This document shows positions 1-19,584 of a DNA stretch of 20,000 bases, piece by piece. The notes beneath the pieces were generated by a model. It was given only the letters and a program-made list of their open reading frames with translations. It did not search any database and was not told the DNA's origin. Position 1 is the stretch's first letter. Each line of letters starts with the position of its first letter. Source of the stretch: an uncultured virus (IMG/VR IMGVR_UViG_3300044631_003060) (lineage: Duplodnaviria; Heunggongvirae; Uroviricota; Caudoviricetes); IMG/VR virus record IMGVR_UViG_3300044631_003060; one strand, given 5' to 3'. Position numbers and translations under genes: made by a program.

Positions 1-947
1 TCAATGTAATCTTGAGCAGGTTTACCATATACAAATGCGTTGTACCCGCTATATGCCGTTGGTTCTACAAGCGTATTATCGGGATAATATTCACTAAAAT
101 ACGCTATGGCTATCTTATCGTAAAAATCGCCACCATAATCGGTAAAACCAAAAGCAATTACGGGCGTGTCCGTTTCTTGAATAACATCACCCTCTATACC
201 AATCGCTTTGCGTAGTTTTTCTTTTAATTCCTCGGAAGCAAATTCATCGGATAAATTCTTAACTCTTGCGCTCTCTCCCGATATACCGCCTCTACTAAAT
301 TTTATTTTAATTCTTCCACCATGAGAGTATTTAGCCATTTCTTTCAATTCGGCTTTTACTCGTTTTGCGGTTTCGCCTCTCCAAGTGCTTGCGTTAGCCA
401 AAAAGTAATTTACTATTGACCTACCATCATCCATACCATAATTATCGTCAATACTATTCATTGTGGACATAGCGTCTAAATATGGTTTAGCACCAAAATA
501 TACATTTTTCCAATCGGCACGAATTTCGGCGGCAATAACATGTAGCGGTCTTTTGGTAGTTCCACCATGAGCATAATATTTGCCTTTGAGCAAGCCATTA
601 TATAATTTTTTAGCGTTTACGGGTGTAAAATTCAAGTCGCGTTGCAAAGTAGTTTCGTCGCCATTGTAACTATAAAGTTTTTCGTTTTCTAACTCCTTTC
701 GAGAAACACTACCGATTTCTACATCTAAAATTTCATAGTCCACAATAGCCCAAATATAATCGGGGTCATTAGGGTCGGAATTTAATAAATACCAATTACC
801 AAAACCGAATGGGTTTACTATTTTTGCCACGACCATTTGTTTTGATAGGTCGTTACCCATTGGATATTGTTTAAAAAGCATCTTGTCAATAGATGCGGTA
901 AATAGTTTCGGGCTATGGTTGCGTAGTGGTTTAAGTTTATCTCTCAT
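1..947 (-). CDS. Modular phage protein, partial (runs off the left edge): N-terminal DUF2958-like domain, a second compact phage domain and a third module, separated by YAHGG / YSHGG / FSRGG motifs
   Basis: Not in the ORF track. I translated it from ATG at 947-945, which overlaps the end of the upstream gene, with no stop before base 1: MRDKLKPLRNHSPKLFTASIDKMLFKQYPMGNDLSKQMVVAKIVNPFGFGNWYLLNSDPNDPDYIWAIVDYEILDVEIGSVSRKELE...QRDLNF...KYYAHGG TTKRPLHVIAAEIRADWKNVYFGAKPYLDAMSTMNSIDDNYGMDDGRSIVNYFLANASTWRGETAKRVKAELKEMAKYSHGG RIKIKFSRGG... The VVAKxxNPxGxGxWY...ExGxxSxxELE...RDLxF pattern matches my recollection of DUF2958. Confidence 0.85.
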   Translation of the reverse strand, partial: MRDKLKPLRNHSPKLFTASIDKMLFKQYPMGNDLSKQMVVAKIVNPFGFGNWYLLNSDPNDPDYIWAIVDYEILDVEIGSVSRKELENEKLYSYNGDETTLQRDLNFTPVNAKKLYNGLLKGKYYAHGGTTKRPLHVIAAEIRADWKNVYFGAKPYLDAMSTMNSIDDNYGMDDGRSIVNYFLANASTWRGETAKRVKAELKEMAKYSHGGRIKIKFSRGGISGESARVKNLSDEFASEELKEKLRKAIGIEGDVIQETDTPVIAFGFTDYGGDFYDKIAIAYFSEYYPDNTLVEPTAYSGYNAFVYGKPAQDYI

Positions 948-3372
948 CGTTTCTGTGGGTTTTTGTTTTGGGCATTAGGTGTGTCAATTCACCACCTTTT
1001 GCATACTTAACTCCTTTTTTCACATATACGCCGTCTAATATGTTTGCGGCATCAATAAAGGTTGTCTTGCCTTTGCGTTCAACCTCTACCTCTTGTATCA
1101 TGTAATTTGGAACATAATTATACTTGCTCGACAATTTGCCTTTTAGCTTACCTCCTTTAGCAAATTCACCCGCTTCGTTTGAGTATGCTATATCGTCTAA
1201 TAGTATTAAATCGCCTACACCATCCTCTCGCTCATATCCTATTGGAGTGTCATTTGGAACTCGCTTATTTGTTTCTTTGTAAACATATTCTTGAAAATCG
1301 CCACTATCATCGCCCTCGGTATATATTATAACATAATCTTGATATTGTTTGGGATTTTGAGCAAATATTTTTTTAATATTTTTGCTTGTTAATGAATGTA
1401 CAGCACCGCCTTCGGCAAAACGCCCCGCACCAAACATGCCGCCATGGGCATTAAATCCCTGTGGTTTGTTTTTGATTAGTAAATAATAAACGCTACTTGG
1501 TACATCTTCTCTTGGTGCAGTATCCATACTATACCAAAGCATATATGCTTTTTTGAAATTTTCTTTTTTAATCATAAGCAAAATAGCTTCATGCTCTTTC
1601 TTGTCGGCACGCATCATTGCAACACCCGACTTATCGCCCTCTTTTTGATATTTTAATATTTTTTTATCGTAATTGGCAATATACTTCTCATAATCTTTTA
1701 CAACCTTTTCAAGATGTTTTTCTGTTTTGCCGCCTTTGGCGTAATGCTTACCGAGTTCTTCTAATGACAATACTTCAACAACCTCATATCCGTTGTTTTC
1801 CGTATCTTTTTTGAAAAGTTTTACGGCTTCTTGTTTTGCTTTTTCAACACTTGGTGCTTCCAAAGTATATGCTTCCGCCGTATTGTGTACTACACCTATG
1901 CCACTTTTTCTTTTTTCTCTCTTTGCTCCATACACGCGAATATGATAATATTTATTTCCGCTTTTGGTTGTTTCGAGTTCTTCTAATGACAACACTTCAA
2001 CAACATCATATCCGTCGTTTTCCGTATCTTTTTTGAAAAGTTTTACGGCTTTTTGTTTTGCTTTTTCAACACTTGGTGCTTCCAAAGTATATGCTTCCGC
2101 CGTATTATGTACTACGCCTATGCCACTTTTTCTTTTTTCTCTCTTTGCTCCATACACGCGAATATGATAAAATTTATTTTCGTCCACACCACCGCCTTTG
2201 GCGTATTTCTCGTTGTGTGCTTTGTGGGTTTTGTCAATGTATTCTAAAACCTCGGTAACTTTATTGTGTCCATATTTTTTTGCCATAGACGACCAAAGGC
2301 TACGGCTTCCAGTAACAACATCTTTTGGATTATGATAAGCATCCACCATTTTCTCAAAGTCTTTCTGGTCAATACCAAATGTATTTTCATACTCATAATC
2401 CTCACCCTCTTCAACATAACCGCCATGCGCAAACTTTTCGCGCATTTTGTACAAACGATTATATTCCGCCCCATTATCCTTGCTAAAATTTTCTTCCGCA
2501 TGATTTAAGGCGGCATAATAATTTTTTCTATTCTCGGCTATTAATCCCATGATACGATTGTATTCCGCACCATTGTCTTTGCTATAATTTTTTTCGGCTT
2601 CATTGAGTTGTGCATATAATTTGTCGGGGTCTACAATACCCCCGTCTTCAAATGTACCCGCACCATGTAACATGCCACCAAGTTTTAAGTATGGATATTT
2701 GCTACGACCAAATCTATCAACGCGGTTTTCGCGATACTCGTAATATGTGTTGCCTTCTTTAGAAATGCGCTTACCAGGCGTTTTGGCTTTGCGAGAAGCG
2801 TCGCGTTCTTTGTCCAATGGTCTTGTTTGCCAATTACCTTTTGAACCCGCTACAACAGTCGCACTATTGAGAGTAGGGTTTTTAGCAAGGAACTCTTGCA
2901 ACTTTTTGTATTGAGTATTGGCGTTTTTAACCGCTTTGGTTTTTTGGGCTTGTATCATTTGTCCCGCACGCTTTACCGCATCCGTCCATTTTTCTTCGCC
3001 CTTTTTGTAAATCTCTTTTGCCAATTTGGTAATGTTTCCCCTATCGGTAGGTTTCGCCGATGCCGTGCTTTTACCCTTTTTGGGTTGAACTACACTTGCT
3101 TGCGCTATTTTTTTAGCCATGGCTTGTGGCGTTTTTGGTTCGGGGGTTTTGGCTACCTTGCTTTTGATGCTTTCGGGATACTTTTGGGCAATATTGGAAT
3201 ACAATGCTTCCATACTATTTTCCGCTACTTTGTAAGCCTCTTTGCTATCCGCATCGGTGCTATTTTTTAATTTCGTGTCATTAAGATATTTTGCTATCTC
3301 TTTAACTTTCTCTACCGCTTTTTCGGGTAATTTGGACAAATCAATGTCTTTATATTTTTCTATTGGTGTCAT
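937..3372 (-). CDS. 811-aa modular Lys-rich protein segmented by about nine xxxGG motifs; putative virion-packaged polyprotein
   Basis: Long ORF abutting its neighbours in operon fashion. It contains LKLGG, FEDGG, FAHGG, YAKGG (x3), NAHGG, FAEGG and FAKGG, with mostly about 50-180-aa modules between them, plus internal duplications. Confidence 0.85.
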   Translation of the reverse strand: MTPIEKYKDIDLSKLPEKAVEKVKEIAKYLNDTKLKNSTDADSKEAYKVAENSMEALYSNIAQKYPESIKSKVAKTPEPKTPQAMAKKIAQASVVQPKKGKSTASAKPTDRGNITKLAKEIYKKGEEKWTDAVKRAGQMIQAQKTKAVKNANTQYKKLQEFLAKNPTLNSATVVAGSKGNWQTRPLDKERDASRKAKTPGKRISKEGNTYYEYRENRVDRFGRSKYPYLKLGGMLHGAGTFEDGGIVDPDKLYAQLNEAEKNYSKDNGAEYNRIMGLIAENRKNYYAALNHAEENFSKDNGAEYNRLYKMREKFAHGGYVEEGEDYEYENTFGIDQKDFEKMVDAYHNPKDVVTGSRSLWSSMAKKYGHNKVTEVLEYIDKTHKAHNEKYAKGGGVDENKFYHIRVYGAKREKRKSGIGVVHNTAEAYTLEAPSVEKAKQKAVKLFKKDTENDGYDVVEVLSLEELETTKSGNKYYHIRVYGAKREKRKSGIGVVHNTAEAYTLEAPSVEKAKQEAVKLFKKDTENNGYEVVEVLSLEELGKHYAKGGKTEKHLEKVVKDYEKYIANYDKKILKYQKEGDKSGVAMMRADKKEHEAILLMIKKENFKKAYMLWYSMDTAPREDVPSSVYYLLIKNKPQGFNAHGGMFGAGRFAEGGAVHSLTSKNIKKIFAQNPKQYQDYVIIYTEGDDSGDFQEYVYKETNKRVPNDTPIGYEREDGVGDLILLDDIAYSNEAGEFAKGGKLKGKLSSKYNYVPNYMIQEVEVERKGKTTFIDAANILDGVYVKKGVKYAKGGELTHLMPKTKTHRNDER
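1752..2179. repeat. Near-identical in-frame tandem duplication (two 206-bp copies, period 222 bp = 74 aa)
   Basis: Copies at 1752-1957 and 1974-2179, with 7 mismatches by manual alignment. Each encodes NK[FY]YHIRVYGAKREKRKSGIGVVHNTAEAYTLEAPSVEKAKQ.AVKLFKKDTEN.GY.VVEVLSLEEL. Confidence 0.95.
2452..2620. repeat. Degenerate 33-aa tandem repeat (period 99 bp)
   Basis: LYAQLNEAEKNYSKDNGAEYNR and YYAALNHAEENFSKDNGAEYNR. The DNA anchor attccgc occurs at 2463 and 2562. Confidence 0.85.
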
Positions 3373-3386: not shown

Positions 3387-6300
3387 TTAAATATCATCGA
3401 GGTCAAGTTCGTCAAGTTTGTTTTTGATTTCTTTGGCTTTACTAATTTTTGGTTGTTTTGGTTTTGTTGTTTTAGATTTTGTTGTTGTAGTCGATGTGGT
3501 GAATGTAATACCATTTACCGACATGATAGTTTGCAAGAGTTCTTGCATTTTACCCTTATTAATATAATTTACAATTATATCGTCCAAAAGATAGGGATAA
3601 ATCCATACTTTAATCCAATTATCAACGCCTAAATTATCTTGCCCCGATATTCCTACTACAGTAAAAGCACTTTCGTCATAAGGCGTATAGAGCGTTGCTT
3701 GATATTGAGTATATCCTTTTGTTATCAAGCCGCTATCAATCAATTCTTCATAGTGTGGATTTGTGCTACCTAAAGCACTAAACATATAAAACAAGTTTAC
3801 AAATTGCACTTTTTCTTCAAGTGTGCGTCTTTTTTTGGATAATAAATCTTTTAATTGGGCTTCGGTTTTAATCGCACCAATATTCAAATCTTCCAACACA
3901 TCAAATTCTTCGTACCATTCGCTCGGAATTTTGGTCAATTTAGGTGTTGTTGTTGCGGGCGGTGTAGCGACTTGATTGCCTACATAATCTTCAACGTATT
4001 TTTCCGACCATTCTTTCACATATTCTTGTGGAACAATTATAGTATAATTAAAATCGTTGCTTTCCGCTATTCCTTTTAAAGGCTCGTACAAGTAATATAA
4101 ATTCGCTGTTCCGTATTTAGAAGCGTCATGTCGCATTTTCTTGATATACTCCTCATATTGAGGGGTATTCGGAATGTTTGACGGGTAAAATCCAAAAAGA
4201 AAATATTTATTTATATCATTTGGTGTTTCTATCGTGAACACTCTTCTTTTGATAGTAAAATCACTTATGGAAATATCTAAATTTCTTTTGATTTCTTCTA
4301 CCATGTACGCACTATGTGTGTTACCACCATCATTCCAATCATACCAATCTTCGTCCCACTTAAATATTGAAGTGGTTGCGGGTGTTGTTGTGGTGGTAGT
4401 TGGTGTAGTTCCGATGTTAAGATAAGCACGAAGTTTTACCCATAGATTTTCAAAAAACATGATTAGTTGGTCTTCGGGTAAAGTTATTAGTAGCCTATCA
4501 TTATTTGGCATTTTAACAACATGTGTTTCAATATCCCTATATCTTGGCGCTAAATAATCATTCACATAACTTGCCCAATCGGAATACATATCTTGTAGAG
4601 TGGTTAAAGCAATGTTGGCAATCGTAGCAAAATTGGGATTGCCGTTATTTTTTATTATCATTTCACGCAAATCGGTTGCATTCCCGTCCATGTCGGTAAA
4701 TTGCCTAAATTGAAAATCTATATCGTAATCGTCATAAATTACTCCAAATGTAATGGGTGTTAGATTATTATTAATCTTGTCAAAAAGCGCCATATCAAGA
4801 ACGCTATCGTTCCAATCAATATCAATTTGTGTAATTGGCGTTGTTGTCGTAGTGCTTGTAGTGGTCGTAGTTTGAGTAGTGCCTCTTTTTAATTTTAACA
4901 TTTTAGCAAAATCTTCCACAAACCTTGACCAAAACTCTTGTAATGTATCAAAAGGCAAAATAACTTTGGTGTCATACTTATCCGACCATTCATCTAAGCC
5001 GATATAGTTTTTATCAAAATCATCCGCGTAAACCTTAAAGCCTTCTTTGTTCATTGTATCGAGTATAGCATAAATTAGCGCACGAATATGTTGTAGTGTG
5101 TCTTTTGACGTTTGGTTGTTCGCTATATCCTCAAATATGATAGCTTTCAAGTCAATAACATCACGGGTGTTTTGCTCTTGAAATTGATATACGCCCATTA
5201 CTACTCCATATTCGTTGCGTAATATTTCTTCCGCATCAAAACCCGCTCCTTGTGTTTCGTTTACTTGTACAATAAAATTATTGTAAATCGCGGGTGTGCT
5301 TGCTTGGCTATCCCAATCTACCAAAACATCGTCCGACGACATTACGGCTTGAGGCGAGGTAGATTGTGGTTTGATAAGTTTGAAATCATACTTTGAATTA
5401 AAATCGTCTATCTTATCTACGGGTATTACAAGCAACAAATCATACGATGTGTCCGTAAGCATATCTCTCAACTCTTCATATTCGCTCCAAAACTTGCTTG
5501 TATCTTCATAGCTTTCTTCGGTTTCCGCCATCTCGCTTGTTAAATCGCTATATGCCCTTGACATTTTTTCGGTTTCGGGGGTAAACCTAACCAAAAGATA
5601 GTTTTTGGATACTCCCTTTTTCGTACTAACAAACTCGCGTTGGTCTATGGTTAATTCGGGGTTTTTAATGTCATATTTATTTTTGAACTCATGCAATTCG
5701 TCCACCATAATATCTTCGTACTTGTCGTCTATCCAAGTGAAGCCGTCTTTATATTTTGGCGTTGGTGTCGGTGTAATTATTTTTGTTTTTCTTGTCTTTG
5801 TTGGTTGTGGCGTTGTAGCGGTTGATACGGGTGTGTTGCCCATATATACTAACGGAGTTTGAGTGTTTCCCCAATCAATAGGTAATGCTTTTAATGTTTT
5901 TACAAACTCGTCTTTAAACTCCCCCATGTTTCTATACCTATAACTATATTCTACATCCTTTGCTTTTGATTGCAACTTGCTTATTTTGGTAGAAGCGTCC
6001 ATAGCCCTACTTGATGAATAGCTTGCATATAGATTTTGAATAAAACTTTCGGATATATATTCAAAAACTGGAGCATGACTTGCATCCTTAAAATTACTTA
6101 TATTGTCAAATGCTTTTTCGGGCGTTTGAAACGCGCCCATATAGTTAGCATATTTTAAGAAAGCTATGGCTCTTGGAGTTAATTTTATAGGAAATATCTT
6201 TTTGGCTTGTGCTTCGCTAAAATAGTTTGTAGCGTCTTTATTTAAAACCTCCATCACAAACAAATAATACATAATTGCATCGCCATAAGCTATCGTAAAA

Positions 6301-8447
6301 TAGTTTGCTTCGTCGGTATTTAATTTATTAATATTTACCCATCTCTCGAAAGCCATGGTTTTTAATTTAATGCTTTCATCCGACCTTGTTAAAACTATTT
6401 CATAATTTAAGGGCAACTCATTGTTTAATTGACTTACCAAGTATAATCTTAAATTATCTACATCTCTAAAGTCGGCGTATTGAGAAATTATTTTGCTTTC
6501 TTGCCCTATCTCATAACTTGTTGTTGCGGTTTGATTTTGAAACAAAAATGATTGCTCAACAAAATCTTTGGAGATAAATTGCGATATACCATCGACATTC
6601 TTTTCATAAGCTACAACATCTTCGCTATTGTCATTAAACCGCCAAGTAAATTGATTTTTTCTACGCGAGGTTTCTTGTTTCGCTACGGGTTCTTCTTCGG
6701 GTAGTTCTTGCTCTATTAAATAAAGCGCATAACTTTCGGATATAAGCGACTTAACTATATCTATGTATTCGGGGTTCTTTTTTGACAATTCGTTTATTCT
6801 ACCCCAATCAAGTGCCGATATAGTATTCAAAAACGTATCGTCATATTCCTCGCCCAAAACATCTATAATTGATTGATATGGGCTTGTTGCGGGTTGCGCC
6901 GCTCCCGTAGTCGTTGTTTTGGTGGTGGGTGAAACACTTAAAAACGCGTCCTTTATTATTTTGCGTATTTGCGGATAAATTTTTTGCGTACTCTTATCAA
7001 TATTTGCTTTTAGATATTCGTCCGTTATACAAAATATTTTTTGACCCGTAAACGGCAATTTGTCTATGTAGTTCAAAAGGTTTTGATATTCTACAACATA
7101 ATGACAAATAACATGTTCGCCTTTTTTATTGATAGCCAAACCCGAATATAAAATGATTAATTCTTCGCTTTTATTATTTATCTTAAACCTATCCCCAACA
7201 CCATAACTATTATCATTGTTTGCATCATCTATTGAAAAACAAGCAAAATATCCGCCGCCCGCGTAAGGTATTACGGGCATGCCATATAAATAATTTTCAA
7301 TAATTATATCTTCTTTCCACAAATCACCACGACTTATAGCAACTCCTTCATATTGATAGTATGTGGAATAATCAAGCGTATCAAACCCATCAAATTGAAA
7401 TTTTAATAAAGTACGAACTTCATTAGGGTTGGGGCTAAATAAGTTTTCTTGTGCGCTATTTTTGTTTTTAATTATGTATGCAAACGATTTACGATTTGAC
7501 GCATAAGAGCCTAAATCCATATTGCCTAAAGACATTCTATTTAACATGCCGTCGTCGCGCACAATACACAACTTATCAAATAGTACGTTGTCCGTAAAAG
7601 GCAAAACGGGCATAGGAAAAGGAGTATAGTTCAAAGATTGATATACCAACCCACTTGGTAATGCATCCCAAATATTGCTTATGCCAAATTTATTTCGGTA
7701 CTCTTCCCGTACACCATTACTTTTAATAGTTATTTCGGATTTTTCTTCAAAATATGAGTAGGCAACTATCTTATCCCCGCTATCTACAGGCTTTTTGGGT
7801 TTTTGTACTTTGATAGGTTCTATTCTTGGCAAGGGTTTTTCTTGCTTCATAAAAACAATACCCGATGGCTTTGGCATATTGATACTCCAATAAGCCATTT
7901 CCATATTGTCATATACGAAATTTAGAATATTGGTTTGCTCGGCGCTTGCAATGTTTTTAGAACTATCTAAAATCTTAGCAATACCTTGTCTTGTGTTTTC
8001 TATTAAAGACAAATACCCTACAACGGGATTGATTACAACACCAATCGGATATAACCTATCTTGTTTCGGTGCGCTCGCGCTTACGGCATCCGTGGACACT
8101 TCACGCTTAATAAATCCGATAGTCAAATAATCCTTGTTGGTCTTATTGTTGTAATATTTATCGCCTATGGAAATAGGTTTTTCCATTGTGGGAACATAGG
8201 TTGAAACCAAATCACTATCTAATATCTTACCATAACGCGGCTCAATAGCATTTATGCCCTTAATGTATGCCAATGCTTCTTTAGGGCTTGTTATTGATTT
8301 ATTTATGTTAAATACGGGATACTTGTCTATGTCGCCACTTGTGCTATATGCTAAATAGACAATGTTCCCGTCTATATCGGGTTCGGTTAGCGGTATTATA
8401 TATTTACCACCTTGTTTTATACCTATGTAAATTTCTCCTACTTTCAT
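3387..8447 (-). CDS. 1686-aa large multidomain protein with Thr/Pro-rich linkers and diverged internal domain repeats; function unknown
   Basis: Uninterrupted ORF. Linkers such as TTKTTTTGAAQPAT, TTQTTTTTSTTTTTP and TTPTTTTTTPATT separate acidic domains. It ends in ELDLDDI. Confidence 0.85.
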   Translation of the reverse strand: MKVGEIYIGIKQGGKYIIPLTEPDIDGNIVYLAYSTSGDIDKYPVFNINKSITSPKEALAYIKGINAIEPRYGKILDSDLVSTYVPTMEKPISIGDKYYNNKTNKDYLTIGFIKREVSTDAVSASAPKQDRLYPIGVVINPVVGYLSLIENTRQGIAKILDSSKNIASAEQTNILNFVYDNMEMAYWSINMPKPSGIVFMKQEKPLPRIEPIKVQKPKKPVDSGDKIVAYSYFEEKSEITIKSNGVREEYRNKFGISNIWDALPSGLVYQSLNYTPFPMPVLPFTDNVLFDKLCIVRDDGMLNRMSLGNMDLGSYASNRKSFAYIIKNKNSAQENLFSPNPNEVRTLLKFQFDGFDTLDYSTYYQYEGVAISRGDLWKEDIIIENYLYGMPVIPYAGGGYFACFSIDDANNDNSYGVGDRFKINNKSEELIILYSGLAINKKGEHVICHYVVEYQNLLNYIDKLPFTGQKIFCITDEYLKANIDKSTQKIYPQIRKIIKDAFLSVSPTTKTTTTGAAQPATSPYQSIIDVLGEEYDDTFLNTISALDWGRINELSKKNPEYIDIVKSLISESYALYLIEQELPEEEPVAKQETSRRKNQFTWRFNDNSEDVVAYEKNVDGISQFISKDFVEQSFLFQNQTATTSYEIGQESKIISQYADFRDVDNLRLYLVSQLNNELPLNYEIVLTRSDESIKLKTMAFERWVNINKLNTDEANYFTIAYGDAIMYYLFVMEVLNKDATNYFSEAQAKKIFPIKLTPRAIAFLKYANYMGAFQTPEKAFDNISNFKDASHAPVFEYISESFIQNLYASYSSSRAMDASTKISKLQSKAKDVEYSYRYRNMGEFKDEFVKTLKALPIDWGNTQTPLVYMGNTPVSTATTPQPTKTRKTKIITPTPTPKYKDGFTWIDDKYEDIMVDELHEFKNKYDIKNPELTIDQREFVSTKKGVSKNYLLVRFTPETEKMSRAYSDLTSEMAETEESYEDTSKFWSEYEELRDMLTDTSYDLLLVIPVDKIDDFNSKYDFKLIKPQSTSPQAVMSSDDVLVDWDSQASTPAIYNNFIVQVNETQGAGFDAEEILRNEYGVVMGVYQFQEQNTRDVIDLKAIIFEDIANNQTSKDTLQHIRALIYAILDTMNKEGFKVYADDFDKNYIGLDEWSDKYDTKVILPFDTLQEFWSRFVEDFAKMLKLKRGTTQTTTTTSTTTTTPITQIDIDWNDSVLDMALFDKINNNLTPITFGVIYDDYDIDFQFRQFTDMDGNATDLREMIIKNNGNPNFATIANIALTTLQDMYSDWASYVNDYLAPRYRDIETHVVKMPNNDRLLITLPEDQLIMFFENLWVKLRAYLNIGTTPTTTTTTPATTSIFKWDEDWYDWNDGGNTHSAYMVEEIKRNLDISISDFTIKRRVFTIETPNDINKYFLFGFYPSNIPNTPQYEEYIKKMRHDASKYGTANLYYLYEPLKGIAESNDFNYTIIVPQEYVKEWSEKYVEDYVGNQVATPPATTTPKLTKIPSEWYEEFDVLEDLNIGAIKTEAQLKDLLSKKRRTLEEKVQFVNLFYMFSALGSTNPHYEELIDSGLITKGYTQYQATLYTPYDESAFTVVGISGQDNLGVDNWIKVWIYPYLLDDIIVNYINKGKMQELLQTIMSVNGITFTTSTTTTKSKTTKPKQPKISKAKEIKNKLDELDLDDI

Positions 8448-11668: not shown

Positions 11669-13820
11669 TATAAATTGTTTTTAATGCGTTATCTATAACT
11701 CTTATGATTTGTTGTTTTGTTCCACTATATCCAAAAGTTGCGGCTATTTCTTGCAATTCCCTCTCGTTATACAACGAATTAAGATTTGAAATAACCCTTA
11801 CTCTCACGGGTATTACGTTAGGTAATTCGCCTTTGGGTGCTTTGAACAATTTTTCCATCGCTTCAATTATGTTTTCGGCGGGCGGTGGTTCTTTGTCGTC
11901 GTGATATACGTTTTGCGGTCTTTTGTTACCCTTGTTAATTTTCAACAAAATATAAGTTTCGTCGCCGTCGTCAAACATGGGTGAGCGAGCCAAAATTTCT
12001 AACTCTTCATCGGGAATAACGACATTTGGTTGTGGGAAACTTAACATTTTACCAAGGAACGCTTGATTGCCTCTATCTTTAATCGTAAATGCGGTGGTGT
12101 CGTCCATTCGCCTAACTTTAGTTTGCAAATCCAACTCTATGCGATTTAGATTAAGATATGTACCCTCGTCGGTAGTTATTGTATAAATAATAACTTTGGT
12201 GGGTTTTTTATGGTCGTCGCCATGGTCGTCATCGTGGTCGTCGCCATGGTCGTCTTTTTTCTCAACCAAAACATAAGCCAACATTCCTTTACCATCAAAA
12301 ATAGGCGCTCTTTTTAATGTTTGCCCATCGTTTTGCGACATACCTCCCATTGGTGGATTGGATGTAGAAAACAACATGCCCTTATAATCTTCGCCTTCTT
12401 TTTCAAAATAATAGAAGCCCGCTTGTCCTTTTTCGGTTTCTTCTTGTGTTTTTGGATTATATGTGTATTCTAATAACTCAAGCATAGAACTTCCGTCATC
12501 TTTTACAAGCCGATAAAATTTAGGGTTTTTGTCGCCTTTTCCATCACCATCGTCTTCACTCACCAACTCGTAACCTAAAGTACCTTCGCCCGACATACCA
12601 CCGATAGCAAAAGTTCTATTTGCATCAAAATCGGGTTTGCGTTTGAGTTTGAAGTTTTGACCATTGATTTCAATATTGATAAAATCTTCTCCCTCTTTGC
12701 TTTGGTATGGATAAGTAACATTTTGAATATACGTTTCTTCTTTTGTTTTTTTGTTATACAAATACTCCGCAAGTTCAACGCTTGTGCCATTGTCCTTAAC
12801 CAAGCGATACAATGTGATTTCGTCTTTTGGTGGTTTGGGTGGTTGTTTTTGTGGCTTTGCTTTGAAAACATAGCCATCCATGCCATCGCCATCAAATTTG
12901 GGTTCTTTTGTTAGTGTTCCCTCTTTTTGCTCATCCACAAACATGCCCTCAAAACCATCGCTCTTTTTGTTTGAAACTTGAAATTCCATGTCGCCCATGA
13001 ATGTAGCCGTTTGAGTAGGCTCGTCAAATTCATAGGTAGCCATAGTTAGCATGTTGCCATTCTCCCTACGCAAACGGAAAAATTGTTTCTTTTCGTCTTT
13101 CGGCGGCGGAGGTGGTGGCGGTGGCGGTGGCGGTGGTGGTGGCGGTGGTGGTGGCGGTGGATTGTCTTTATACTCTTGCTTATCGCTTAATTCTTTAAAA
13201 TAATCAAACGCATCCAAAGTGCCTTGAGTAGTTGGGCTAAATACTTTTTCTTCGCTTATGGTGTCTTTTTCATGCTTGCCAACATAAAAATAAGATAAGC
13301 CTTTTTCATCTACTCGATATTCAAGAAAAACGATTACGCCGCTTTTAGGAAAATAATTTTCCCATCTACGACCTTTCCCGTCGTCCATATCTTTTTTGGT
13401 GTAAACGGGTTTTTCGTAATTTCCTTGTGGCTGCATGGGTGGCATTTGTGGGGTGCTTTGCATTGATGGATTATCAATTTGCATGTTTCCATTATTTGCT
13501 TGCACCAACTCTAAATCTTTACCTTCCCAACTTTCACCATTAGACAAAACATATAATAAGCCACTCGGATTTTCTTGCCTAATAAATCCACCTATGTTGT
13601 TTCCTTGATTGTCCAACATATAAGGCGTTGCTCCGCCTCTTTCTATGCTTACCACTTTTAGCGGTCTTTGTTCTCCGCCCTCGGTATTTTGAAGCATATC
13701 GACGCGAACCGCCACTACATCGCCAACATTATAACTTGCGTTCCATGTACTTGCATCGGTAGAGGGTATTTTACTACTTGTCCAATCATCGTATTCTGCC
13801 CAACCTATATTCCAATTCAT
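11661..13820 (-). CDS. 719-aa protein with a 20-residue polyproline tract and four diverged repeats of about 80-95 aa; function unknown
   Basis: Long ORF overlapping the AAA start by 8 nt. Repeats begin FFRLRRENG, LYRLVKDNG, FYRLVKDDG and IYTITTDEG, and each ends with a L.[KR].P.FD...Y motif. Confidence 0.85.
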   Translation of the reverse strand: MNWNIGWAEYDDWTSSKIPSTDASTWNASYNVGDVVAVRVDMLQNTEGGEQRPLKVVSIERGGATPYMLDNQGNNIGGFIRQENPSGLLYVLSNGESWEGKDLELVQANNGNMQIDNPSMQSTPQMPPMQPQGNYEKPVYTKKDMDDGKGRRWENYFPKSGVIVFLEYRVDEKGLSYFYVGKHEKDTISEEKVFSPTTQGTLDAFDYFKELSDKQEYKDNPPPPPPPPPPPPPPPPPPPPKDEKKQFFRLRRENGNMLTMATYEFDEPTQTATFMGDMEFQVSNKKSDGFEGMFVDEQKEGTLTKEPKFDGDGMDGYVFKAKPQKQPPKPPKDEITLYRLVKDNGTSVELAEYLYNKKTKEETYIQNVTYPYQSKEGEDFINIEINGQNFKLKRKPDFDANRTFAIGGMSGEGTLGYELVSEDDGDGKGDKNPKFYRLVKDDGSSMLELLEYTYNPKTQEETEKGQAGFYYFEKEGEDYKGMLFSTSNPPMGGMSQNDGQTLKRAPIFDGKGMLAYVLVEKKDDHGDDHDDDHGDDHKKPTKVIIYTITTDEGTYLNLNRIELDLQTKVRRMDDTTAFTIKDRGNQAFLGKMLSFPQPNVVIPDEELEILARSPMFDDGDETYILLKINKGNKRPQNVYHDDKEPPPAENIIEAMEKLFKAPKGELPNVIPVRVRVISNLNSLYNERELQEIAATFGYSGTKQQIIRVIDNALKTIYNG
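12210..12254. repeat. 12-bp tandem repeat encoding DDHGDDHDDDHGDDH
   Basis: atggtcgtcgcc-type units are repeated nearly four times. Confidence 0.9.
13101..13160. repeat. Polyproline-coding tract (20 Pro codons)
   Basis: 60 bp of NGG triplets on the + strand, equal to mixed CCA/CCG/CCT codons on the - strand. Confidence 0.95.
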
Positions 13821-13837
13821 ATATTATTTTGATTATG

Positions 13838-13868
13838 CAATCTTACTAATTTTATTTTACAAAACAAA
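13838..13868 (-). promoter_or_regulatory. Candidate Bacteroidota sigma-70-type promoter for the repeat protein-AAA-vWA operon
   Basis: The minus strand reads TTTG-N19-TAAGATTG, one mismatch from TAnnTTTG. It lies in the only sizeable internal intergenic gap, 17 nt upstream of the ATG at 13820. Confidence 0.45.
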
Positions 13869-13897
13869 AATCTCATTAATCTATTTTTGTCTATTTA

Positions 13898-16270
13898 TCA
13901 TATCTTGCCACCCTTTTCAAAGCCCGCATTGTTTACTTGGGTATTAAAATGTTCGGCGCTTGACCATTTAATTTGCTCTTGACGAAATACCATGTAAGAA
14001 CCCGTTTGATTGGGTTGTCCATTAATTAAATCTTGGGGATTATCTTCATACATCATAATTCCATCATAGAAAGTATTATCACGCAAATATATTATCAATT
14101 TTGGGTTTATGTGTCGTATGTATTGCCAAAACTTAAATTCACTATCGAGATATTCATCCATGGCTTGTTGCCCCGCTTTTTCATATTTGGGCAAATCGGG
14201 TAAACTTGCACTTTGGGGTATTCCATATTCAACTTGCAAATAATCGGATATTCGGCGCAACGACAAAGCATCTAACCCCATACCCATAATATCAATCGGG
14301 TTTTTAATATCCACAAACACTTGATACATGAACCCATCACTTGTTAGGTTAGCAAACCATTGCGAATACGACCTATTATCCGCAAAATAAGCGGCGGGGA
14401 AATCATTAAAACGCCATGACATAAAATCGGCTCTTGAACCATGGTAGCAAACTAAAGGCTCTTGTGTTCTTGGATTGATTACTTTGCTTACGTTTGTGTA
14501 ATCTCCCGTATAGAAAGCGCTTTGCCAATCACCAAACCAATTAAGAAAGTTTTGGCTTCTTACCTTGTACCATTGTTTTTCGGACAACTCGCTTGGTTGC
14601 CCATTTATGCTTAATAGTTGGTTTGTTGGTTCGTACTCCTCAACCCTTACTTGTTCAAACGTGTTGCCAAGTTTGTCTATAAGTTCTACGCTTGTATTTG
14701 CATCTAATAAATACTTATCTCTTTGCTCTCTTAAATCGGATAACTTTCTATCTATTTGAACCTTTTGTTTTTGTCCACTTGCTATATCTCGCATCAATGT
14801 AAGTTGCAATACCTCCTCATTGATAGTGTCTATAAGCGTAGTGTAAAGTTCTACATCTCTCTCGTCTTTTTTTCTTTTTCGTACTATTTCTTTTTCTAAT
14901 GGGTTTGAACTAAATCCGCCGCGCCTATCTTCGTCAATAGTTTCGTAATGTTTAATAATAAGAAAATTCATATCACCCATAAAATCGGTGGTTATGTAAT
15001 TTTGATTATTATATTGAAACATTATACCGCCACATTGAAGAGAAGTGGTTAGTTTGAAGCCAATAATTTCAATATCCAAAATTGCATATTTTTCACCATT
15101 TATTGTTTGGGTATAGTCAAGTTTTAATTTTTTCGCTTTAGGCAAAACCTCATAATCATAATATGTATCGTCATTCATTGCGACGCTTTCTACTTGATAA
15201 CATGTCATACGTTCCCTAAAAGCAACCTTGCATTTTGAGCCAACTTGAAGTATTGTGTTTTCATCTAATTCTCGCGATTTATCATAATTTAATGGACGCT
15301 CATATATGTATCCATCTTCTTCTTTAATATTGCAACAATCATAATATGCGTTATTTGATAATGTTGGCATATCATACAAAAACACATAACCATCGGGATT
15401 GTCTATCACCCAATAATCTTCATCATTCATCCTTGCCGACAAAACAAAATTGCCTATCAAGTTTTCTTTATTAAAATACGGGCTATTTTGTGTTGGATAC
15501 ACTATTTGGGAACTTGTAGCAAAGTCGGGCGGTAGGTTTAATATGGGATAATTATATGTTATAATTCTATCCATATTATGAAAATTGGATTTTAATTCTA
15601 TTTGGAAATATTGCCCGTCATGCTCTCTACCCAATACCATGTACTCTAAGACATCCTCTTTAAAAACTAATCTTTTTACTTGCCATGGCAACATTGTTTT
15701 GTAGCCATATTGTTTTATGATATTAAAATAGTTTTTTCCAAATAAATTTTCATTCATTGCATCGTTTGCGGTTGGAAAAGGCTTTATATACATGAATGTA
15801 CCTTGAGTAATAATACGCGATAAATCACATTCATCGCCGTCGTTTAATACAAGTAAAATTGACGCGGTTTTATAATCTAAAATTATTTTATCAATTATGT
15901 ATTTAGTTAAGCCCCAATCGTCATGCGTAGATAGAACACAATCACGACCAACGTAATTTTTCTCCATTTCCTCTTTTGCTCCGTCGGTTATTGCGCCTCC
16001 AACATTATAAAATTGAGTAGGTACTTTGCCGCCCTCTTGAAACGATACTCCGCCATGTTCGCTATTCAAAACACTCAATATTTCTTTGGGTGTCATTTCT
16101 TTGCCCTCAAACAAATATTTGTCCTTGCTATCTATCGCGGGTTTGGTAATAACAACTTGACCGCCATCAACTTCTAATGGCTCGTTTGATATGTTGTTAT
16201 TCGCGCTTGATGCGTTTTGATTTGTTGTGCCTACAACGTATCCGCTATCTTCGGCTTGGTTATTATTCAT
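13898..16270 (-). CDS. Polyvalent-type protein with C-terminal ART-PolyVal-like ADP-ribosyltransferase domain (paralogue 2)
   Basis: The sequence VRSQNFLNWFGDW...SKVINPRTQEPLVCYHGS...AYFAD...VFVDIKNPID...YDGI...YMVFRQEQIK matches the motif series I recall for ART-PolyVal domains of phage polyvalent proteins. It aligns end to end with 16272..18695. Confidence 0.75.
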   Translation of the reverse strand: MNNNQAEDSGYVVGTTNQNASSANNNISNEPLEVDGGQVVITKPAIDSKDKYLFEGKEMTPKEILSVLNSEHGGVSFQEGGKVPTQFYNVGGAITDGAKEEMEKNYVGRDCVLSTHDDWGLTKYIIDKIILDYKTASILLVLNDGDECDLSRIITQGTFMYIKPFPTANDAMNENLFGKNYFNIIKQYGYKTMLPWQVKRLVFKEDVLEYMVLGREHDGQYFQIELKSNFHNMDRIITYNYPILNLPPDFATSSQIVYPTQNSPYFNKENLIGNFVLSARMNDEDYWVIDNPDGYVFLYDMPTLSNNAYYDCCNIKEEDGYIYERPLNYDKSRELDENTILQVGSKCKVAFRERMTCYQVESVAMNDDTYYDYEVLPKAKKLKLDYTQTINGEKYAILDIEIIGFKLTTSLQCGGIMFQYNNQNYITTDFMGDMNFLIIKHYETIDEDRRGGFSSNPLEKEIVRKRKKDERDVELYTTLIDTINEEVLQLTLMRDIASGQKQKVQIDRKLSDLREQRDKYLLDANTSVELIDKLGNTFEQVRVEEYEPTNQLLSINGQPSELSEKQWYKVRSQNFLNWFGDWQSAFYTGDYTNVSKVINPRTQEPLVCYHGSRADFMSWRFNDFPAAYFADNRSYSQWFANLTSDGFMYQVFVDIKNPIDIMGMGLDALSLRRISDYLQVEYGIPQSASLPDLPKYEKAGQQAMDEYLDSEFKFWQYIRHINPKLIIYLRDNTFYDGIMMYEDNPQDLINGQPNQTGSYMVFRQEQIKWSSAEHFNTQVNNAGFEKGGKI

Positions 16271-16271: not shown

Positions 16272-18695
16272 TTAAATATCGTCTAAGGTTAGATTAGTAT
16301 AGTCGGGCGGCAACATTCCACCTTTGGCAAAACCCGCATTGTTTACTTGGGTGTTAAAATGTTCGGCGGTAGCCCATTTGATTTGAGATTGTCTAAACAC
16401 CATATAAGAACCCGTTGTGTTTGGTTGTCCGTTTACAATATCTTGAAGATTGTCCTCATACATCATAATACCATCATAAAACGTATTGTCCCGCAAGTAA
16501 TTAATTAAGTTTGGATTGTGGTGTCGTATAAATTGCCAAAATTTCATTGGGGCGTTAAGATATTGCTCTAACACATCTTCTCCCCCCGCTTCGTATTGCT
16601 TGTACCTTGGCAATATTTGTTCAAGCGGCAAGTCATAAGTATCGCGTAAGTGTTCCATAATTTCTCTTATGGTAAACTCTTTTATTCCCATAAACATTAC
16701 ATCTATGGGGTTTTTTATATCAATAAACACTTGATACATGAAACCATCGCTTGACAAATTAGCAAACCATTGTGAGTATGAACGATTGTCGGCAAAATAG
16801 GCGGCGGGGAAATCGTTAAATCTCCACGACATGAAATCCGCCCGTGAGCCATGATAACAAACAATAGGTTCTTTTGTCCTTGAGTTTATTACCTTACTCA
16901 CGCCCGCGTAATTATCAAATTCGTATGCGTTTATCCAATCACCAAACCATGCCTTGAATTTTTCGGTACGGACTTTATCATATTGGCTATCGGTCAATTC
17001 GGATGGTTGTCCGTTAATGCTCAATCTCGTTGTAGGTGGTTCTTCTTTTTCTATGCGGGATATTTCTAAAGTTTTACCAAGTTTATCTATCAACTCCACA
17101 TTGGTATCGTATTCAAGGGCGTATTTATCCCTTTGCTCTCGCAATTCTTCTAACTTTCTATCTATTTGGTTTATTTTGGTTTTTTGATTTGGATTGGTAA
17201 AATCACGAATGGTTTGATATTGTAATATTTCAATATCCAAAGCATTGATTAATTCTCCGTATAGTTCCTTGTCGCTTTTCTCTTTTTTTCTATATTTTCT
17301 AATTAACTTTTCGGTATCGGTCATATTGCTATTGCCCCAACGATTTTCTATGTCCACAAAGTTTTCAACCATACCAAAAAACAAACTATCAACATCGGTG
17401 CGTGATTTAGCAAAGTCAATAGCATAAGTAATTCCATTACTCTCAAAAATTATAGCGGTAACACGGGTAACATTGTTTATGGGCGTAAAAAAACCTTTTA
17501 TAATGCAATCAAATATTTTATAGCGAACACCATTTGGATATTTTTTGTCGTAATCAATATTAACTTGTTTGTTTGTATTAAAACTATAATATGTTTTGCC
17601 ACTTATTTCATATTCCGACACTTCCTCTACATGATAATTTTCATCAACATATAAATTGCATTTAGCACCTACAAAAAGAACCATGTGTTCGTCGTGTTTT
17701 ATGGCTACATCGTCTTGCACTACTCCACTTATACTATGTCCCTCTAAGTTTTTACATACATATTTAGGATAACGCTCTTGATTTTTATTTTCTACCCAAT
17801 TATGGCTATAAAAAGAAGCATAATTATTGGTGGGATAAAACATTTTTCCCGCTCCTAATGACGAATTGTAAGATAATCGTAAGGCAAGCGTGCCAAATAG
17901 ATGTGGTTGTAGCAAAAGCGTATTTTCTTGTGTTGGATATTCTTGGTCTAAATGAATTGTCGGCGTGTTAATAACAACTACCCTATCGCTATTGTAATAT
18001 TGTAAATTAAAATCAAATTGATAATATTCATCATCCTCGTTTCTTCCAAGAGTTAATTTAACTAAAGCATCGTCGATAAATTCCAAATCTACCACGCGCC
18101 ACGGAATGTAGATATTATATCCCCTTTTTTCTATTACTTCTTCGTAGTATTTATTGCCAAACAATTCCCTATCTCTTTCGTTGTCATTAAATCGTTTTAC
18201 AAAAACATAAGAACCAACTACTACTAATTCATGCAATGATGCAAATTCGTTGTTGTTGCATTTTGCTGTGAAATTATCTTGGTTTTGCAACAATATACTT
18301 TCTATTATATATTTTTTGGTTCGCAAATCATCATTATATGTAAAAACCATTGATTGCCCTACATACGATTTATTAATTTCATCCTCTTCTTGTTTGGTTA
18401 TTAGCCCGCCCGTTGAATATTTTGTCTTTTTTATCTCGCCCCCTTTTTTGAAAGACACTCCACCATGGTCGCTATTTAGTTTGCTCATAATTTCTTTGGG
18501 TGTCATTTGCTTGCCCTCAAAATTGTATTTTCTTACGCTTTCAACGGCGGGCTTGGTTATGATAACTTCTCCGCCCTCCACCTCAATAGGTTGATTAGTG
18601 TCGGTTACTATGGCTTTTATACCGCCCTCGCTATGTGGTTTGCCTACAAGGTATCCGCCTTTTTTGGCATCTTTTGTTTTTATGGTTTTTTTCAT
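16272..18695 (-). CDS. Polyvalent-type protein with N-terminal GxxHxxGGI...EVEGGE module and C-terminal ART-PolyVal-like domain (paralogue 1)
   Basis: N-terminus GGYLVGKPHSEGGI...EVEGGEVII. C-terminal region VRTEKFKAWFGDW...SKVINSRTKEPIVCYHGS...AYFAD...IKNPID...YDGI...YMVFRQSQIK. A coiled coil precedes the ART domain. Confidence 0.78.
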   Translation of the reverse strand: MKKTIKTKDAKKGGYLVGKPHSEGGIKAIVTDTNQPIEVEGGEVIITKPAVESVRKYNFEGKQMTPKEIMSKLNSDHGGVSFKKGGEIKKTKYSTGGLITKQEEDEINKSYVGQSMVFTYNDDLRTKKYIIESILLQNQDNFTAKCNNNEFASLHELVVVGSYVFVKRFNDNERDRELFGNKYYEEVIEKRGYNIYIPWRVVDLEFIDDALVKLTLGRNEDDEYYQFDFNLQYYNSDRVVVINTPTIHLDQEYPTQENTLLLQPHLFGTLALRLSYNSSLGAGKMFYPTNNYASFYSHNWVENKNQERYPKYVCKNLEGHSISGVVQDDVAIKHDEHMVLFVGAKCNLYVDENYHVEEVSEYEISGKTYYSFNTNKQVNIDYDKKYPNGVRYKIFDCIIKGFFTPINNVTRVTAIIFESNGITYAIDFAKSRTDVDSLFFGMVENFVDIENRWGNSNMTDTEKLIRKYRKKEKSDKELYGELINALDIEILQYQTIRDFTNPNQKTKINQIDRKLEELREQRDKYALEYDTNVELIDKLGKTLEISRIEKEEPPTTRLSINGQPSELTDSQYDKVRTEKFKAWFGDWINAYEFDNYAGVSKVINSRTKEPIVCYHGSRADFMSWRFNDFPAAYFADNRSYSQWFANLSSDGFMYQVFIDIKNPIDVMFMGIKEFTIREIMEHLRDTYDLPLEQILPRYKQYEAGGEDVLEQYLNAPMKFWQFIRHHNPNLINYLRDNTFYDGIMMYEDNLQDIVNGQPNTTGSYMVFRQSQIKWATAEHFNTQVNNAGFAKGGMLPPDYTNLTLDDI

Positions 18696-18708: not shown

Positions 18709-19584
18709 TCAAATATCTTCCAAAGTTAAATTAGAATAGTCGGGTGGTGGAATTATCCCGCCCTCTTTGTAGTTAGCGTCTATGTAAAACAAATCACCCT
18801 CATATTCAAAGCCTATTGCTTCTTGCCCCCATTCTTTTGCCCATTTGGCTATCATTTTCATAAGTTTTAATTTGTTTTCTTTGAAGGCTTCGGGCGTAGA
18901 ATAGGCGACTACCCTTACCACGTCCTCATTGACAAGCGCACCCTCGTTTGTAACGTAACCACCAACGGCATCGGCGGAAGTATAACCACCGAACATGCTT
19001 GCAAGCGTTCTTTTTACCATCGTTACCCTACCGCTCAAATCGTTTTTATGAATTTTTGTGCTTACATTGGATGTGCTTGGGACATATACCGCCATTTCAA
19101 TCGGCAAATGAAACATTTTATTTTGTTTCGGCAATCTTGGCTTAGATGACACTCTTCCCCCTTGCGCCATTTTTATCGTCATGCCACCTAATTGCAATTT
19201 AAGGTCTTTCAATCGCCTATAATAGTCAAGTGTTTCGTATATGTGGTCTTGGGCAATCGCCATTGCAATAGCGGGGTCATCGGTATGTTCCATTTCGTGC
19301 GCCATACCTTCGTCAAGTAGCGTAATCAATTTATCTTTTGATACGTTGTGTTTTGATAAAATTTCTTCAAAGGTGTGTTTTCCGACGGGCAAGTTTGGCT
19401 TAATTAAGTCGGGTATTTGTATTTCTTCCATCGTAATTTGAGTATTTGGATTGGTTTCAAGTATTATTTTTGTTGGCGTAAAATCATCATTAAGCGTTAC
19501 ATTTAACGCATCTTGCAAATCTATATTACTACCGACATTAAACGCTTTGTGGTCGTTTTGGTCATTAATAAATAACACTATCAT
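18709..19584 (-). CDS. Multi-module protein: DUF5661-like domain plus an alpha/beta domain bounded by GG motifs
   Basis: GMAHEMEHTDDPAIAMAIAQDHIYETLDYYRRL matches the GxxxExEH...IAxDHL...YYxxL signature of DUF5661. The second domain (AVYVPST...FGGYT...GGYV...EDVVRV...WGQEAIGFE) lies between MAQGG and YKEGG. Confidence 0.8.
   Translation of the reverse strand: MIVLFINDQNDHKAFNVGSNIDLQDALNVTLNDDFTPTKIILETNPNTQITMEEIQIPDLIKPNLPVGKHTFEEILSKHNVSKDKLITLLDEGMAHEMEHTDDPAIAMAIAQDHIYETLDYYRRLKDLKLQLGGMTIKMAQGGRVSSKPRLPKQNKMFHLPIEMAVYVPSTSNVSTKIHKNDLSGRVTMVKRTLASMFGGYTSADAVGGYVTNEGALVNEDVVRVVAYSTPEAFKENKLKLMKMIAKWAKEWGQEAIGFEYEGDLFYIDANYKEGGIIPPPDYSNLTLEDI

Follow-up and report, generated by a model that had tools for sequence, protein, structure and literature searches.

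The locus examined here raises the question of why one short peptide, with an aromatic residue three positions ahead of a Gly-Gly pair ([FY]xxGG), should recur throughout the proteins of a single viral gene cluster. The locus is a 20,000-nucleotide stretch from an uncultured virus (IMG/VR record IMGVR_UViG_3300044631_003060), referred to in its full length as the window, in which ten open reading frames (ORFs), every one on the minus strand, are found at a GC content of ~36%. A first-pass annotation had listed 17 strict motifs in five of the genes and had taken these genes for polyproteins whose modules are released by a Gly-Gly-specific protease, or else for proteins with a repeated capsid-docking signal. 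Our analysis shows that the five genes, encoding proteins of 315, 811, 790, 807, and 291 aa, are polyvalent effector strings made of small, independently folding, interchangeable modules, including ADP-ribosyltransferase (ART), DUF2958, and DUF5661, and their beads-on-a-string anatomy is strongly supported.

All 17 motifs of the earlier list are present in the window, together with its variants LKLGG, NAHGG, MAQGG, LQLGG, and AKKGG, and one further strict match, YEAGG, brings the total to 18 (Table 1). YEAGG is probably a chance match outside the system, since its position falls within the ART-PolyVal envelope and the paralogue has no GG there; three other sites are common to both ART paralogues by descent, so the sites are not all independent. 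When the residues of the five motif proteins (3014 aa) were shuffled, the mean count was 1.34 (SD 1.14, maximum 8) and none of the 5000 shuffles reached 18, and F or Y stands three residues ahead of GG in 18 of the 34 GG pairs compared with a background of 10.5% (binomial p = 1e-9), the motif having been defined after inspection of the data. The other five proteins (3473 aa) contain exactly the four loose matches named before (YAGGG, YVGGG, FIVGG, and FAIGG) vs 1.15 expected, a count equaled or exceeded in 137 of 5000 shuffles. Outside the window, the motif is seen again in 28 database homologues of the 811-aa protein and in six related viral contigs, which were compared whole (41-170 kb, 37-86% complete by CheckV). 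Pooling of 357 motifs from 52 motif-rich proteins (the five of the window, the 28 homologues, and those of the six contigs) gave an extended consensus of eight residues, K-[FYM]-A-[KDE]-G-G-x-[VILTM]. The aromatic slot is filled by F (45%), Y (42%), or M (13%), with G at -2 and with K at -1 in 26%; +1 is A in 66% and +2 is K in 50% and otherwise D, N, or E. Position +6, which the search pattern did not demand, is V (31%), I (20%), L (15%), T (13%), or M (10%), together 89%. The consensus is kept across contigs of 31 to 39% GC, and within the six related contigs 80-94% of the extended motifs fall in two to five proteins that make up 6-20% of the residues, with 710 of the 745 ORFs having none. 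A 1521-aa ORF of the relative G001 (37091-41655; L078/L079/L080) was rejected as a carrier, as its 24 matches to the simple pattern are F[VI]GGG / S-x-V-V-G-G repeats that the stricter patterns drop; this ORF, truncated where the contig stops, has the look of a fibre or beta-helix protein. No description of the motif was found in the published texts searched.

The motifs had been described as falling between recognizable domains, and their positions do coincide with the domain boundaries seen in Pfam/PHROG envelopes and with low-confidence linkers of an AlphaFold model, with only one motif inside an envelope vs 9.8 expected. In motif-bearing proteins from the window and from three relatives, a motif follows 14 of the 15 envelopes at a distance of -4 to +20 aa (2.75 at random; 14 was reached in none of 10,000 trials), and this was replicated in other contigs, where five of six domain envelopes are followed by a motif (1.21 at random; 11 of 10,000 trials), so that in both sets pooled the motif stands behind 19 of 21 envelopes. 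In the window, YAHGG (aa 125) follows DUF2958, the YAKGG motifs at residues 390 and 544 of the 811-aa protein stand around a duplicated module, and ART-PolyVal ends 7-10 aa ahead of F[AE]KGG. When the 811-aa protein was modeled with AlphaFold from 27 aligned rows (mean pLDDT 63, pTM 0.29), six of its seven GG pairs fell at pLDDT below 50 and the seventh in coil, and the predicted helices 302-315, 369-392, and 537-546 stop at [FY]A. A fold search with this model found nothing in the PDB at E <= 0.001 and only weak rows in BFVD; the duplicated module has a weak resemblance to DUF4494 proteins of phages (BFVD fold search, probability 1.0, TM ~0.3, ~148 columns), and DUF4494 is a separate gene in the relative G002.

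Two of the strings each combine two unrelated domains, DUF2958 with a phrog_13953 module and DUF5661 with a phrog_3543 module, and both of these modules exist elsewhere as complete stand-alone phage proteins. The former, which lies exactly between two motifs, is equivalent to residues 4-80 of the 80-aa Pukovnik gp85; over its 77 aa it shows 60-68% identity to small proteins from the right arm of Gordonia and Mycobacterium phages (79 records), which is unusually high for viruses that differ so much in GC content and host. Residues 156-268 of the 291-aa protein match residues 14-122 of a 122-aa Bacillus phage protein, that is, up to its last residue. The motif is therefore appended behind a natural module C-terminus, and since such modules are complete proteins on their own elsewhere, a module set free is a functional unit. 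NCBIfam gave no match for the motif proteins or for the zincin family considered below, and PDB sequence-profile searches with four alignments (zincin included) gave no significant match.

The modules are also exchanged between proteins. The 28 database homologues of the 811-aa protein contain 4-15 motifs in 27 cases and two in the remaining one. When the window protein and its 17 closest homologues were split at the motifs, an N-domain of ~230 aa was common to all 18 family members compared, and the remaining 111 segments of at least 25 aa fell into 41 clusters, the order and number of which vary between proteins. Relatives carry LPD1, LPD11, NUDIX, RadC, ArdA, and RelA/SpoT modules, the ArdA anti-restriction domains occurring in more distant homologues of the 811-aa protein. 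The polyprotein interpretation thus holds with respect to the module string, as shown by domain ends, stand-alone modules, and shuffling, and is only partly supported overall, a Ulp1, adenain, or prohead protease not having been found in the searches of incomplete related contigs described below.

As to what the peptide does, we tentatively favor a cut site, for which the zincin would be the most likely enzyme, as a reading that is quite possible. The peptide would be the recognition site for one conserved partner, and the strings would be cut at it into free modules, either in the particle or after entry into the host. The putative scissile bond may follow GG, may separate the aromatic residue from Ala (the arrangement in the tape-measure protein pb2 of phage T5), or may precede the aromatic residue. 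The candidate cutter, the best among the proteins examined, is a stand-alone, putative zinc metallopeptidase of ~260 aa with a predicted M48-like fold, which would replace the metallopeptidase domain that is embedded in other polyvalent proteins.

Enzymes known to use sites that end in Gly-Gly include adenain, ASFV pS273R, and the Ulp1/deubiquitinase group, and adenain cuts at (M/L/I)-x-G-G|x, where P4 is hydrophobic. If the junction peptide were cut after GG, its P4 would be A (66%), K (11%), E (10%), S (4%), or N (3%) across the 357 motifs, so M, I, and L are outside the five commonest at P4, and the hydrophobic residue of the junction peptide is one position further out than in adenain; judged by its letters, the junction site does not fit the adenain rule. 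The proposed Ulp1 (C48) and adenain (C5) types of protease, PF02902 and PF00770, were found in none of five related contigs searched in six frames at their 37-86% completeness, and in the same five contigs MPTase-PolyVal (PF18818) was absent in six frames at E <= 0.1. A prohead protease was likewise found neither among 135 + 83 Pfam-scanned ORFs nor among 117 PHROGs-scanned ones, from contigs that are incomplete and very poorly annotated. The Pfam scan covered 135 ORFs of G001-G003 and 83 of the 84 ORFs of G008 that have at least 90 aa and lie off piece borders (two more cross a border), and the PHROGs scan covered 117 ORFs of G001-G003. The only peptidases found in these scans were cell-wall types, and none of the ten proteins of the window matches a peptidase family in Pfam.

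An all-against-all comparison, however, reveals a stand-alone ~260-aa HExxH family, the zincin, in six of six related contigs, outside the window. It has 2378 database homologues at E <= 0.001 and matches no Pfam family, and H187, E188, H191, and E201 are invariant across 58 aligned sequences. Its AlphaFold model (pLDDT 92, pTM 0.91) consists of an N-terminal beta-sandwich followed by a helix-sheet-helix domain, with the HExxH and downstream Glu residues on helices 178-193 and 201-214. Structurally, the C-domain is matched best by E. coli BepA, an M48 peptidase (Z 8.6, rmsd 4.4, 122 residues; VIA-align, 48,161 chains), followed by the putative Zn peptidase 3c37 (Z 6.9), ZMPSTE24 (6.5), Ste24p (6.2), and abylysin (5.9); all five C-domain rows among the top 50 are thus M48 or minigluzincin peptidases, at moderate Z values. 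A Foldseek search returned nothing at E <= 0.001, sequence searches gave only Peptidase_M56 (E 0.025, in one of five members) and nothing among PDB sequences, and the ESM Atlas leads were below 0.9 (DUF4344 0.86, M48 0.81). On the basis of the model, it is credible that the family is an M48-like zinc peptidase. All ten contigs of at least 26 kb that encode the string N-domain also encode the zincin, but as the zincin is a core gene of the clade this co-occurrence proves nothing; similarly, little can be learned from the finding that only 8 of 80 zincin loci have a motif-rich ORF within +/-10 kb, as the distance between the two gene blocks is usually >10 kb. One string, in a single contig of those examined (L189:10195-12378), contains a RadC-like JAB domain (aa 198-321) with YEMGG immediately behind it. 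JAB enzymes include Gly-Gly-specific isopeptidases.

Several observations weigh against cutting. The co-occurrence of zincin and motif may reflect shared descent only, and, as weak evidence, no fused zincin form of at least 512 aa was found. The T5 pb2 site is a single instance and is cut ahead of AEGG rather than behind GG, and no homology to tape-measure proteins emerged, as BLASTP gave no alignment and hhalign aligned 15 columns at a probability of 1.4% and gave 0.2% in a second comparison, a resemblance and nothing else. The model helices that stop at [FY]A fit a structural cap too. In addition, 20 of the 52 motif-rich proteins end 0-20 aa past a motif, where uniform placement would give 9.1 (there are many homologues among the 20, with by eye some eight to ten distinct tail types), only three of 52 have a motif in their first 20 aa, one protein ends exactly ...FKTGG, and ART paralogue 2 ends ...FEKGGKI. 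At such very C-terminal positions a cut would free merely a tiny peptide, and in tandem doublets (xxGGYMAKGG) cutting would yield hexapeptides. Because of this C-terminal bias the unit is best seen as module plus tag, which is a good fit to a C-terminal handle and a poorer one to a cut site unless short tails matter. The peptide might instead be, in line with the alternative of the first-pass annotation, an uncut docking or loading handle, a C-terminal tag that would bind a putative particle component or a chaperone/ATPase, with repeats giving avidity and strings remaining whole. This accommodates the C-terminal bias and the doublets, some otherwise motif-free proteins that close with a single motif (such as a 350-aa G008 protein, FKRGGEI), the consensus kept across contigs of differing GC, and the searches of related contigs that did not find a dedicated GG protease. 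It also has to explain why nearly each module is tagged when one tag per polypeptide would suffice, and it concerns particles, where we only infer the string proteins to be located; it accounts for the data nearly as well as cutting does, and on balance we consider it possible, if somewhat less likely. A passive structural punctuation, in which aromatic-Ala would terminate a helix or pack against the preceding module and GG would interrupt the chain, leaving adjoining small modules free to fold, unfold, and refold on their own with neither partner nor cut, appears rather less probable again. It would suit the three model helices that stop at [FY]A with GG in coil, a hydrophobic +6 residue would be compatible with a capping contact, and ART-PolyVal itself ends NPDIR[FYM] in other lineages, so the aromatic residue can belong to the domain. 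Yet a hinge is needless at a protein end, where 20 of the 52 proteins have the motif, beta-rich modules precede it too, and an eight-residue consensus over diverse modules and distant contigs would exceed usual linker conservation. The same genome, moreover, joins other multi-domain proteins by different means, the parts of the 1686-aa protein being connected by five Thr-rich linkers and the 719-aa protein having a 20-residue Pro run and a DDHGDDHDDDHGDDH stretch, and the GG peptide is therefore not the ordinary linker of this genome.

Two further explanations dispense with a role for the peptide in the protein. The shuffling of modules between motifs in the homologues is what would be expected if the sites were DNA-level recombination linkers, providing microhomology for in-frame cassette exchange, but the 18 sites of 15 nt have a mean pairwise identity of 8.89 vs 9.12 +/- 0.17 when codons are redrawn from the usage of the window (1854 of 2000 resamplings reach the observed identity), and both Gly positions draw on all four Gly codons. 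The signal lies at the protein level, its codons being no more alike than usage predicts, and a recombination linker is thus a very remote prospect. Even less can be said for chance or a Gly-rich composition, which we regard as next to impossible. It is true that the motif was defined post hoc, that YEAGG looks like a chance match, and that the simple pattern catches the F[VI]GGG repeat of an unrelated protein; against this stand the shuffles and binomial value given above, position tests that are independent of the count, and the recurrence in 28 homologues and six contigs.

Table 1. Positions of features in the window and of selected loci in related contigs (entries prefixed with L); motifs are listed by protein.
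Feature	Position	Strand	Assignment
315-aa ORF, 3' open at window end: DUF2958, phrog_13953 module, further part	3..947	-	Pfam, PHROG
DUF2958 in 315-aa ORF	aa 35-110	-	Pfam
Module aa 130-206 of 315-aa ORF, exactly between YAHGG and YSHGG	330..560	-	phrog_13953
YAHGG (aa 125 of 315-aa ORF), after DUF2958	561..575	-	
YSHGG (aa 207), directly behind natural C-terminus of module	315..329	-	
FSRGG (aa 217), tandem with YSHGG	285..299	-	
811-aa string protein: conserved N-domain, seven motif-delimited segments, basic His-rich C-tail	937..3372	-	
Conserved N-domain of 811-aa protein, aa 1-231, with element GKRxSKxGxTYYEYRxNRxD	2680..3372	-	
Duplicated alpha/beta module, aa 395-543 of 811-aa protein; motifs on both flanks, none between copies	1744..2190	-	
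LKLGG variant (aa 229 of 811-aa protein)	2674..2688	-	
FEDGG (aa 241)	2638..2652	-	
FAHGG (aa 314), end of predicted helix 302-315	2419..2433	-	
YAKGG (aa 390), end of predicted helix 369-392	2191..2205	-	
YAKGG (aa 544)	1729..1743	-	
NAHGG variant (aa 641)	1438..1452	-	
FAEGG (aa 652)	1405..1419	-	
FAKGG (aa 737)	1150..1164	-	
YAKGG (aa 790), then only 17-aa tail ELTHLMPKTKTHRNDER, conserved in homologues	991..1005	-	
1686-aa protein	3387-8447	-	
AAA_5 (MoxR/CobS-like) ATPase	10235-11668	-	
719-aa protein	11661-13820	-	
ART-PolyVal protein, 790 aa (paralogue 2)	13898..16270	-	Pfam
FQEGG (aa 77 of paralogue 2)	16028..16042	-	
YNVGG (aa 88 of paralogue 2)	15995..16009	-	
FEKGG (aa 784 of paralogue 2), protein end 2 aa further	13907..13921	-	
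ART-PolyVal protein, 807 aa (paralogue 1)	16272..18695	-	Pfam
AKKGG variant (aa 10 of paralogue 1)	18654..18668	-	
FKKGG (aa 82 of paralogue 1)	18438..18452	-	
YSTGG (aa 93 of paralogue 1)	18405..18419	-	
YEAGG (aa 701 of paralogue 1), within ART-PolyVal envelope; probably chance	16581..16595	-	
FAKGG (aa 789 of paralogue 1), after ART-PolyVal	16317..16331	-	
C-terminal tail MLPPDYTNLTLDDI of paralogue 1, after last motif	16275..16316	-	
Conserved ~80-aa GG-rich module, DAKKGGY..SHxEGGI..IEVEGGEVIITK..FEG..GGVSFxxGG	18366..18695 (paralogue 1), 15956-16270 (paralogue 2)	-	
291-aa protein: DUF5661 (aa 75-127) and module aa 156-271	18709..19584	-	Pfam, PHROG
Module aa 156-271 of 291-aa protein	18772..19119	-	phrog_3543
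LQLGG variant (aa 130 of 291-aa protein), directly after DUF5661	19183..19197	-	
MAQGG variant (aa 139)	19156..19170	-	
YKEGG (aa 272), directly after phrog_3543 module	18757..18771	-	
C-terminal tail IPPPDYSNLTLEDI of 291-aa protein, after last motif	18712..18753	-	
Zincin family	L079:6430-7212; L083:2587-3363; L086:6830-7615; L107:6778-7566; L122:6303-7172		
Sulfotransferase/APS-kinase-like genes	L079:12202-13023, 13442-13909; L083:11940-12764; L084:98-565; L107:15739-16560, 16919-17404		

Apart from the motifs, the strings share other elements. A basic element in the N-domain, R-D-A-x-R-K-A-x-P-x-G-K-R-x-S-K-x-G-x-T-Y-Y-E-Y-R-x-N-R-x-D (2701-2817, aa 186-224 of the 811-aa protein), stands ahead of the first junction. 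Many motif-rich proteins of other contigs (L093-L104) begin with a version of it that is 58-67% identical, and it also occurs in short motif-free proteins; the ESM Atlas contained nothing usable for the N-domain. The ~80-aa GG-rich module of the ART proteins, which has no Pfam family, is found elsewhere (L048:5237-5551; L095:3913-4227; L104:1573-1887) with the pattern SHxDGGI...IEVEGGEVIITK...FEGxxLTNxEIL...GGGVSF, and whereas it is N-terminal in the ART proteins of the window, in the G001 relative it lies C-terminal to the ART domain. Between its core and VHRGEFVFTKEATSR of lambda gpH there is a weak resemblance (hhalign E 0.037, probability 1.4%). Near-identical tails close three of the ten proteins of the window, ...PPDYTNLTLDDI, ...PPPDYSNLTLEDI, and ...KLDELDLDDI (the last at 3390-3431, minus strand), in two of the three directly behind the last GG motif. 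ART paralogue 2 lacks the tail, and no other ORF of the ~200 loci compared has a similar one. It may be a second, lineage-specific C-terminal tag.

The two ART-PolyVal paralogues are 46% identical and score 42.3 and 39.4 bits where the Pfam cut-off is 31.2, and the 811-aa protein has no Pfam family. Between the motif genes are those for the 1686-aa, 99-aa, and 492-aa proteins, an AAA_5 (MoxR/CobS-like) ATPase, and the 719-aa protein; neither the 1686-aa nor the 719-aa protein matches a Pfam or PHROG family. The ATPase lies inside the effector-string cluster in a gene order that is kept in the window, G001, G007, and G008 (L078:6615-9116; L106:5326-6717), and its copy in G001 has an inserted LAGLIDADG intein. 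Its closest relatives, in which the gene cluster is syntenic, are viral contigs of IMG/VR. No match was obtained with the window in 50,697 phage records (megablast), with the 811-aa protein in cultured phages (tblastn), or with an exact 40-mer of the window in viral and metagenome contigs, and the only match in 185,579 species genomes is on a 6-kb contig of a metagenome-assembled genome, which gives no clue to the host.

The nature of these viruses has a bearing on which analogy applies. No terminase, portal, or HK97-type capsid family was detected in the related contigs with Pfam and PHROGs, and a ~270-aa P-loop protein of the core set has weak similarity to the packaging NTPase B204 of STIV (E 0.029). 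The core genes of G001, G002, G003, G007, and G008 (e.g., L079:1525-2337 and L079:2634-3329) encode this P-loop protein and a ~231-250-aa protein of no known function. To go by gene content, the relatives may belong to a tailless lineage, in which case adenovirus would be the better analogy and tape-measure proteins the poorer one. G001, G002, and G008 also share genes for a sulfotransferase and an APS-kinase-like protein, which may represent a virus-borne sulfation pathway. At its most complete, the proposal would be that of a large and abundant clade of uncultured bacterial viruses of ~75-170 kb, perhaps tailless and membrane-containing, in which an eight-residue C-terminal tag admits any effector and an M48-like zincin cuts the strings into free anti-defense effectors, a combination that we consider improbable as a whole.

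Polyvalent proteins are thought to be the first weapons that a virus or plasmid brings into a cell, and the delimiting, exchange, and release of their domains have so far been predicted without mapped sites. What is new here is the extended consensus, its C-terminal bias, the codon test, the boundary statistics, the match of two modules to stand-alone proteins, the link to a probably tailless clade, and the modeled zincin. A searchable junction peptide would split thousands of unannotated giant viral proteins into functional units, as splitting at the motifs has given at least 41 module types in one family, most without a known family, and it would flag new anti-defense effectors and provide a precise target for mutagenesis and N-terminomics. 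If the tag is a loading handle or a cut site, it could be used to load chosen cargo into particles. If it is a tag at which the zincin cuts, the long-predicted cutting sites of polyvalent proteins would be revealed, and they would be the bacterial-virus counterpart of the 'protease plus Gly-Gly site' maturation of adenovirus.

Among known systems, cuts near Gly-Gly or glycine-rich sequences are described for phage tail proteins. A cut behind R1127 divides T5 pb2 into pb2* and pb2C (Linares et al., 2023; PMC10038345), and lambda gpH is converted to gpH* by a cut in its Gly-rich C-terminal region, at a site and by an enzyme that are unknown (PMC12617516). The T5 sequence at the mapped cut is FVPR|AEGGMM, an A-x-G-G peptide reminiscent of the junctions described here, and lambda gpH has only two [FY]AxGG motifs, FATGG and YATGGYV, both in that Gly-rich region. 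The window strings would resemble both proteins in the detachment of one domain from a protein that exits the particle, but there is one site per protein in pb2 and gpH and one per module in the strings. Furthermore, no TMP family in Pfam matches the window modules whereas T5 pb2 matches TMP_C, and no tail genes were detected with Pfam and PHROGs in the relatives scanned. A Gly-rich site at a domain junction is also seen in Tal, the tail-associated lysin of lactococcal phage TP901-1, in which NGGGNSGGGD at a two-domain junction is processed and Gly-to-Arg changes block the cut (PMC11409707). In contrast to the window strings, Tal has a single site of another sequence, lacking the aromatic-Ala-Lys prefix, and is a structural tail protein and not an effector string.

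Portable and repeated peptides are known from T-even phages as well. The T4 capsid targeting sequence is a single portable N-terminal peptide that directs cargo into the head and that a protease cleaves off at L/I-x-E, and in T-even gp38 adhesins conserved Gly-rich motifs bracket swappable segments inside one folded domain. Neither the T4 tag nor the gp38 motifs are repeated after each module of an effector string. The adenain and pS273R systems have in common with the window short sites that end in Gly-Gly; theirs are in genome-packed proteins and are cut by a virus-encoded protease. The differences here are that C5/C48 enzymes were found in none of the five incomplete related contigs, that with a cut after GG P4 would be Ala in 66% instead of Met, Leu, or Ile, and that the candidate enzyme is a zincin.

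A further comparison is with the polyvalent proteins. As proposed by Iyer, Burroughs, Anand, de Souza, and Aravind (2017; PMC5512222), these are predicted to be processed by metallopeptidases, a zincin-like MPTase domain being embedded in ~36% of them and not required. The terms 'GG motif', 'glycine', and 'linker' do not occur in that text, and a junction peptide is not described in it. Unlike polyvalent proteins, the window strings have unusually small modules (~50-150 aa), each of them tagged, and an embedded MPTase is present in none of the five related contigs. Like them, they are virus-encoded strings of unrelated effector domains, with ART-PolyVal above the Pfam cut-off.

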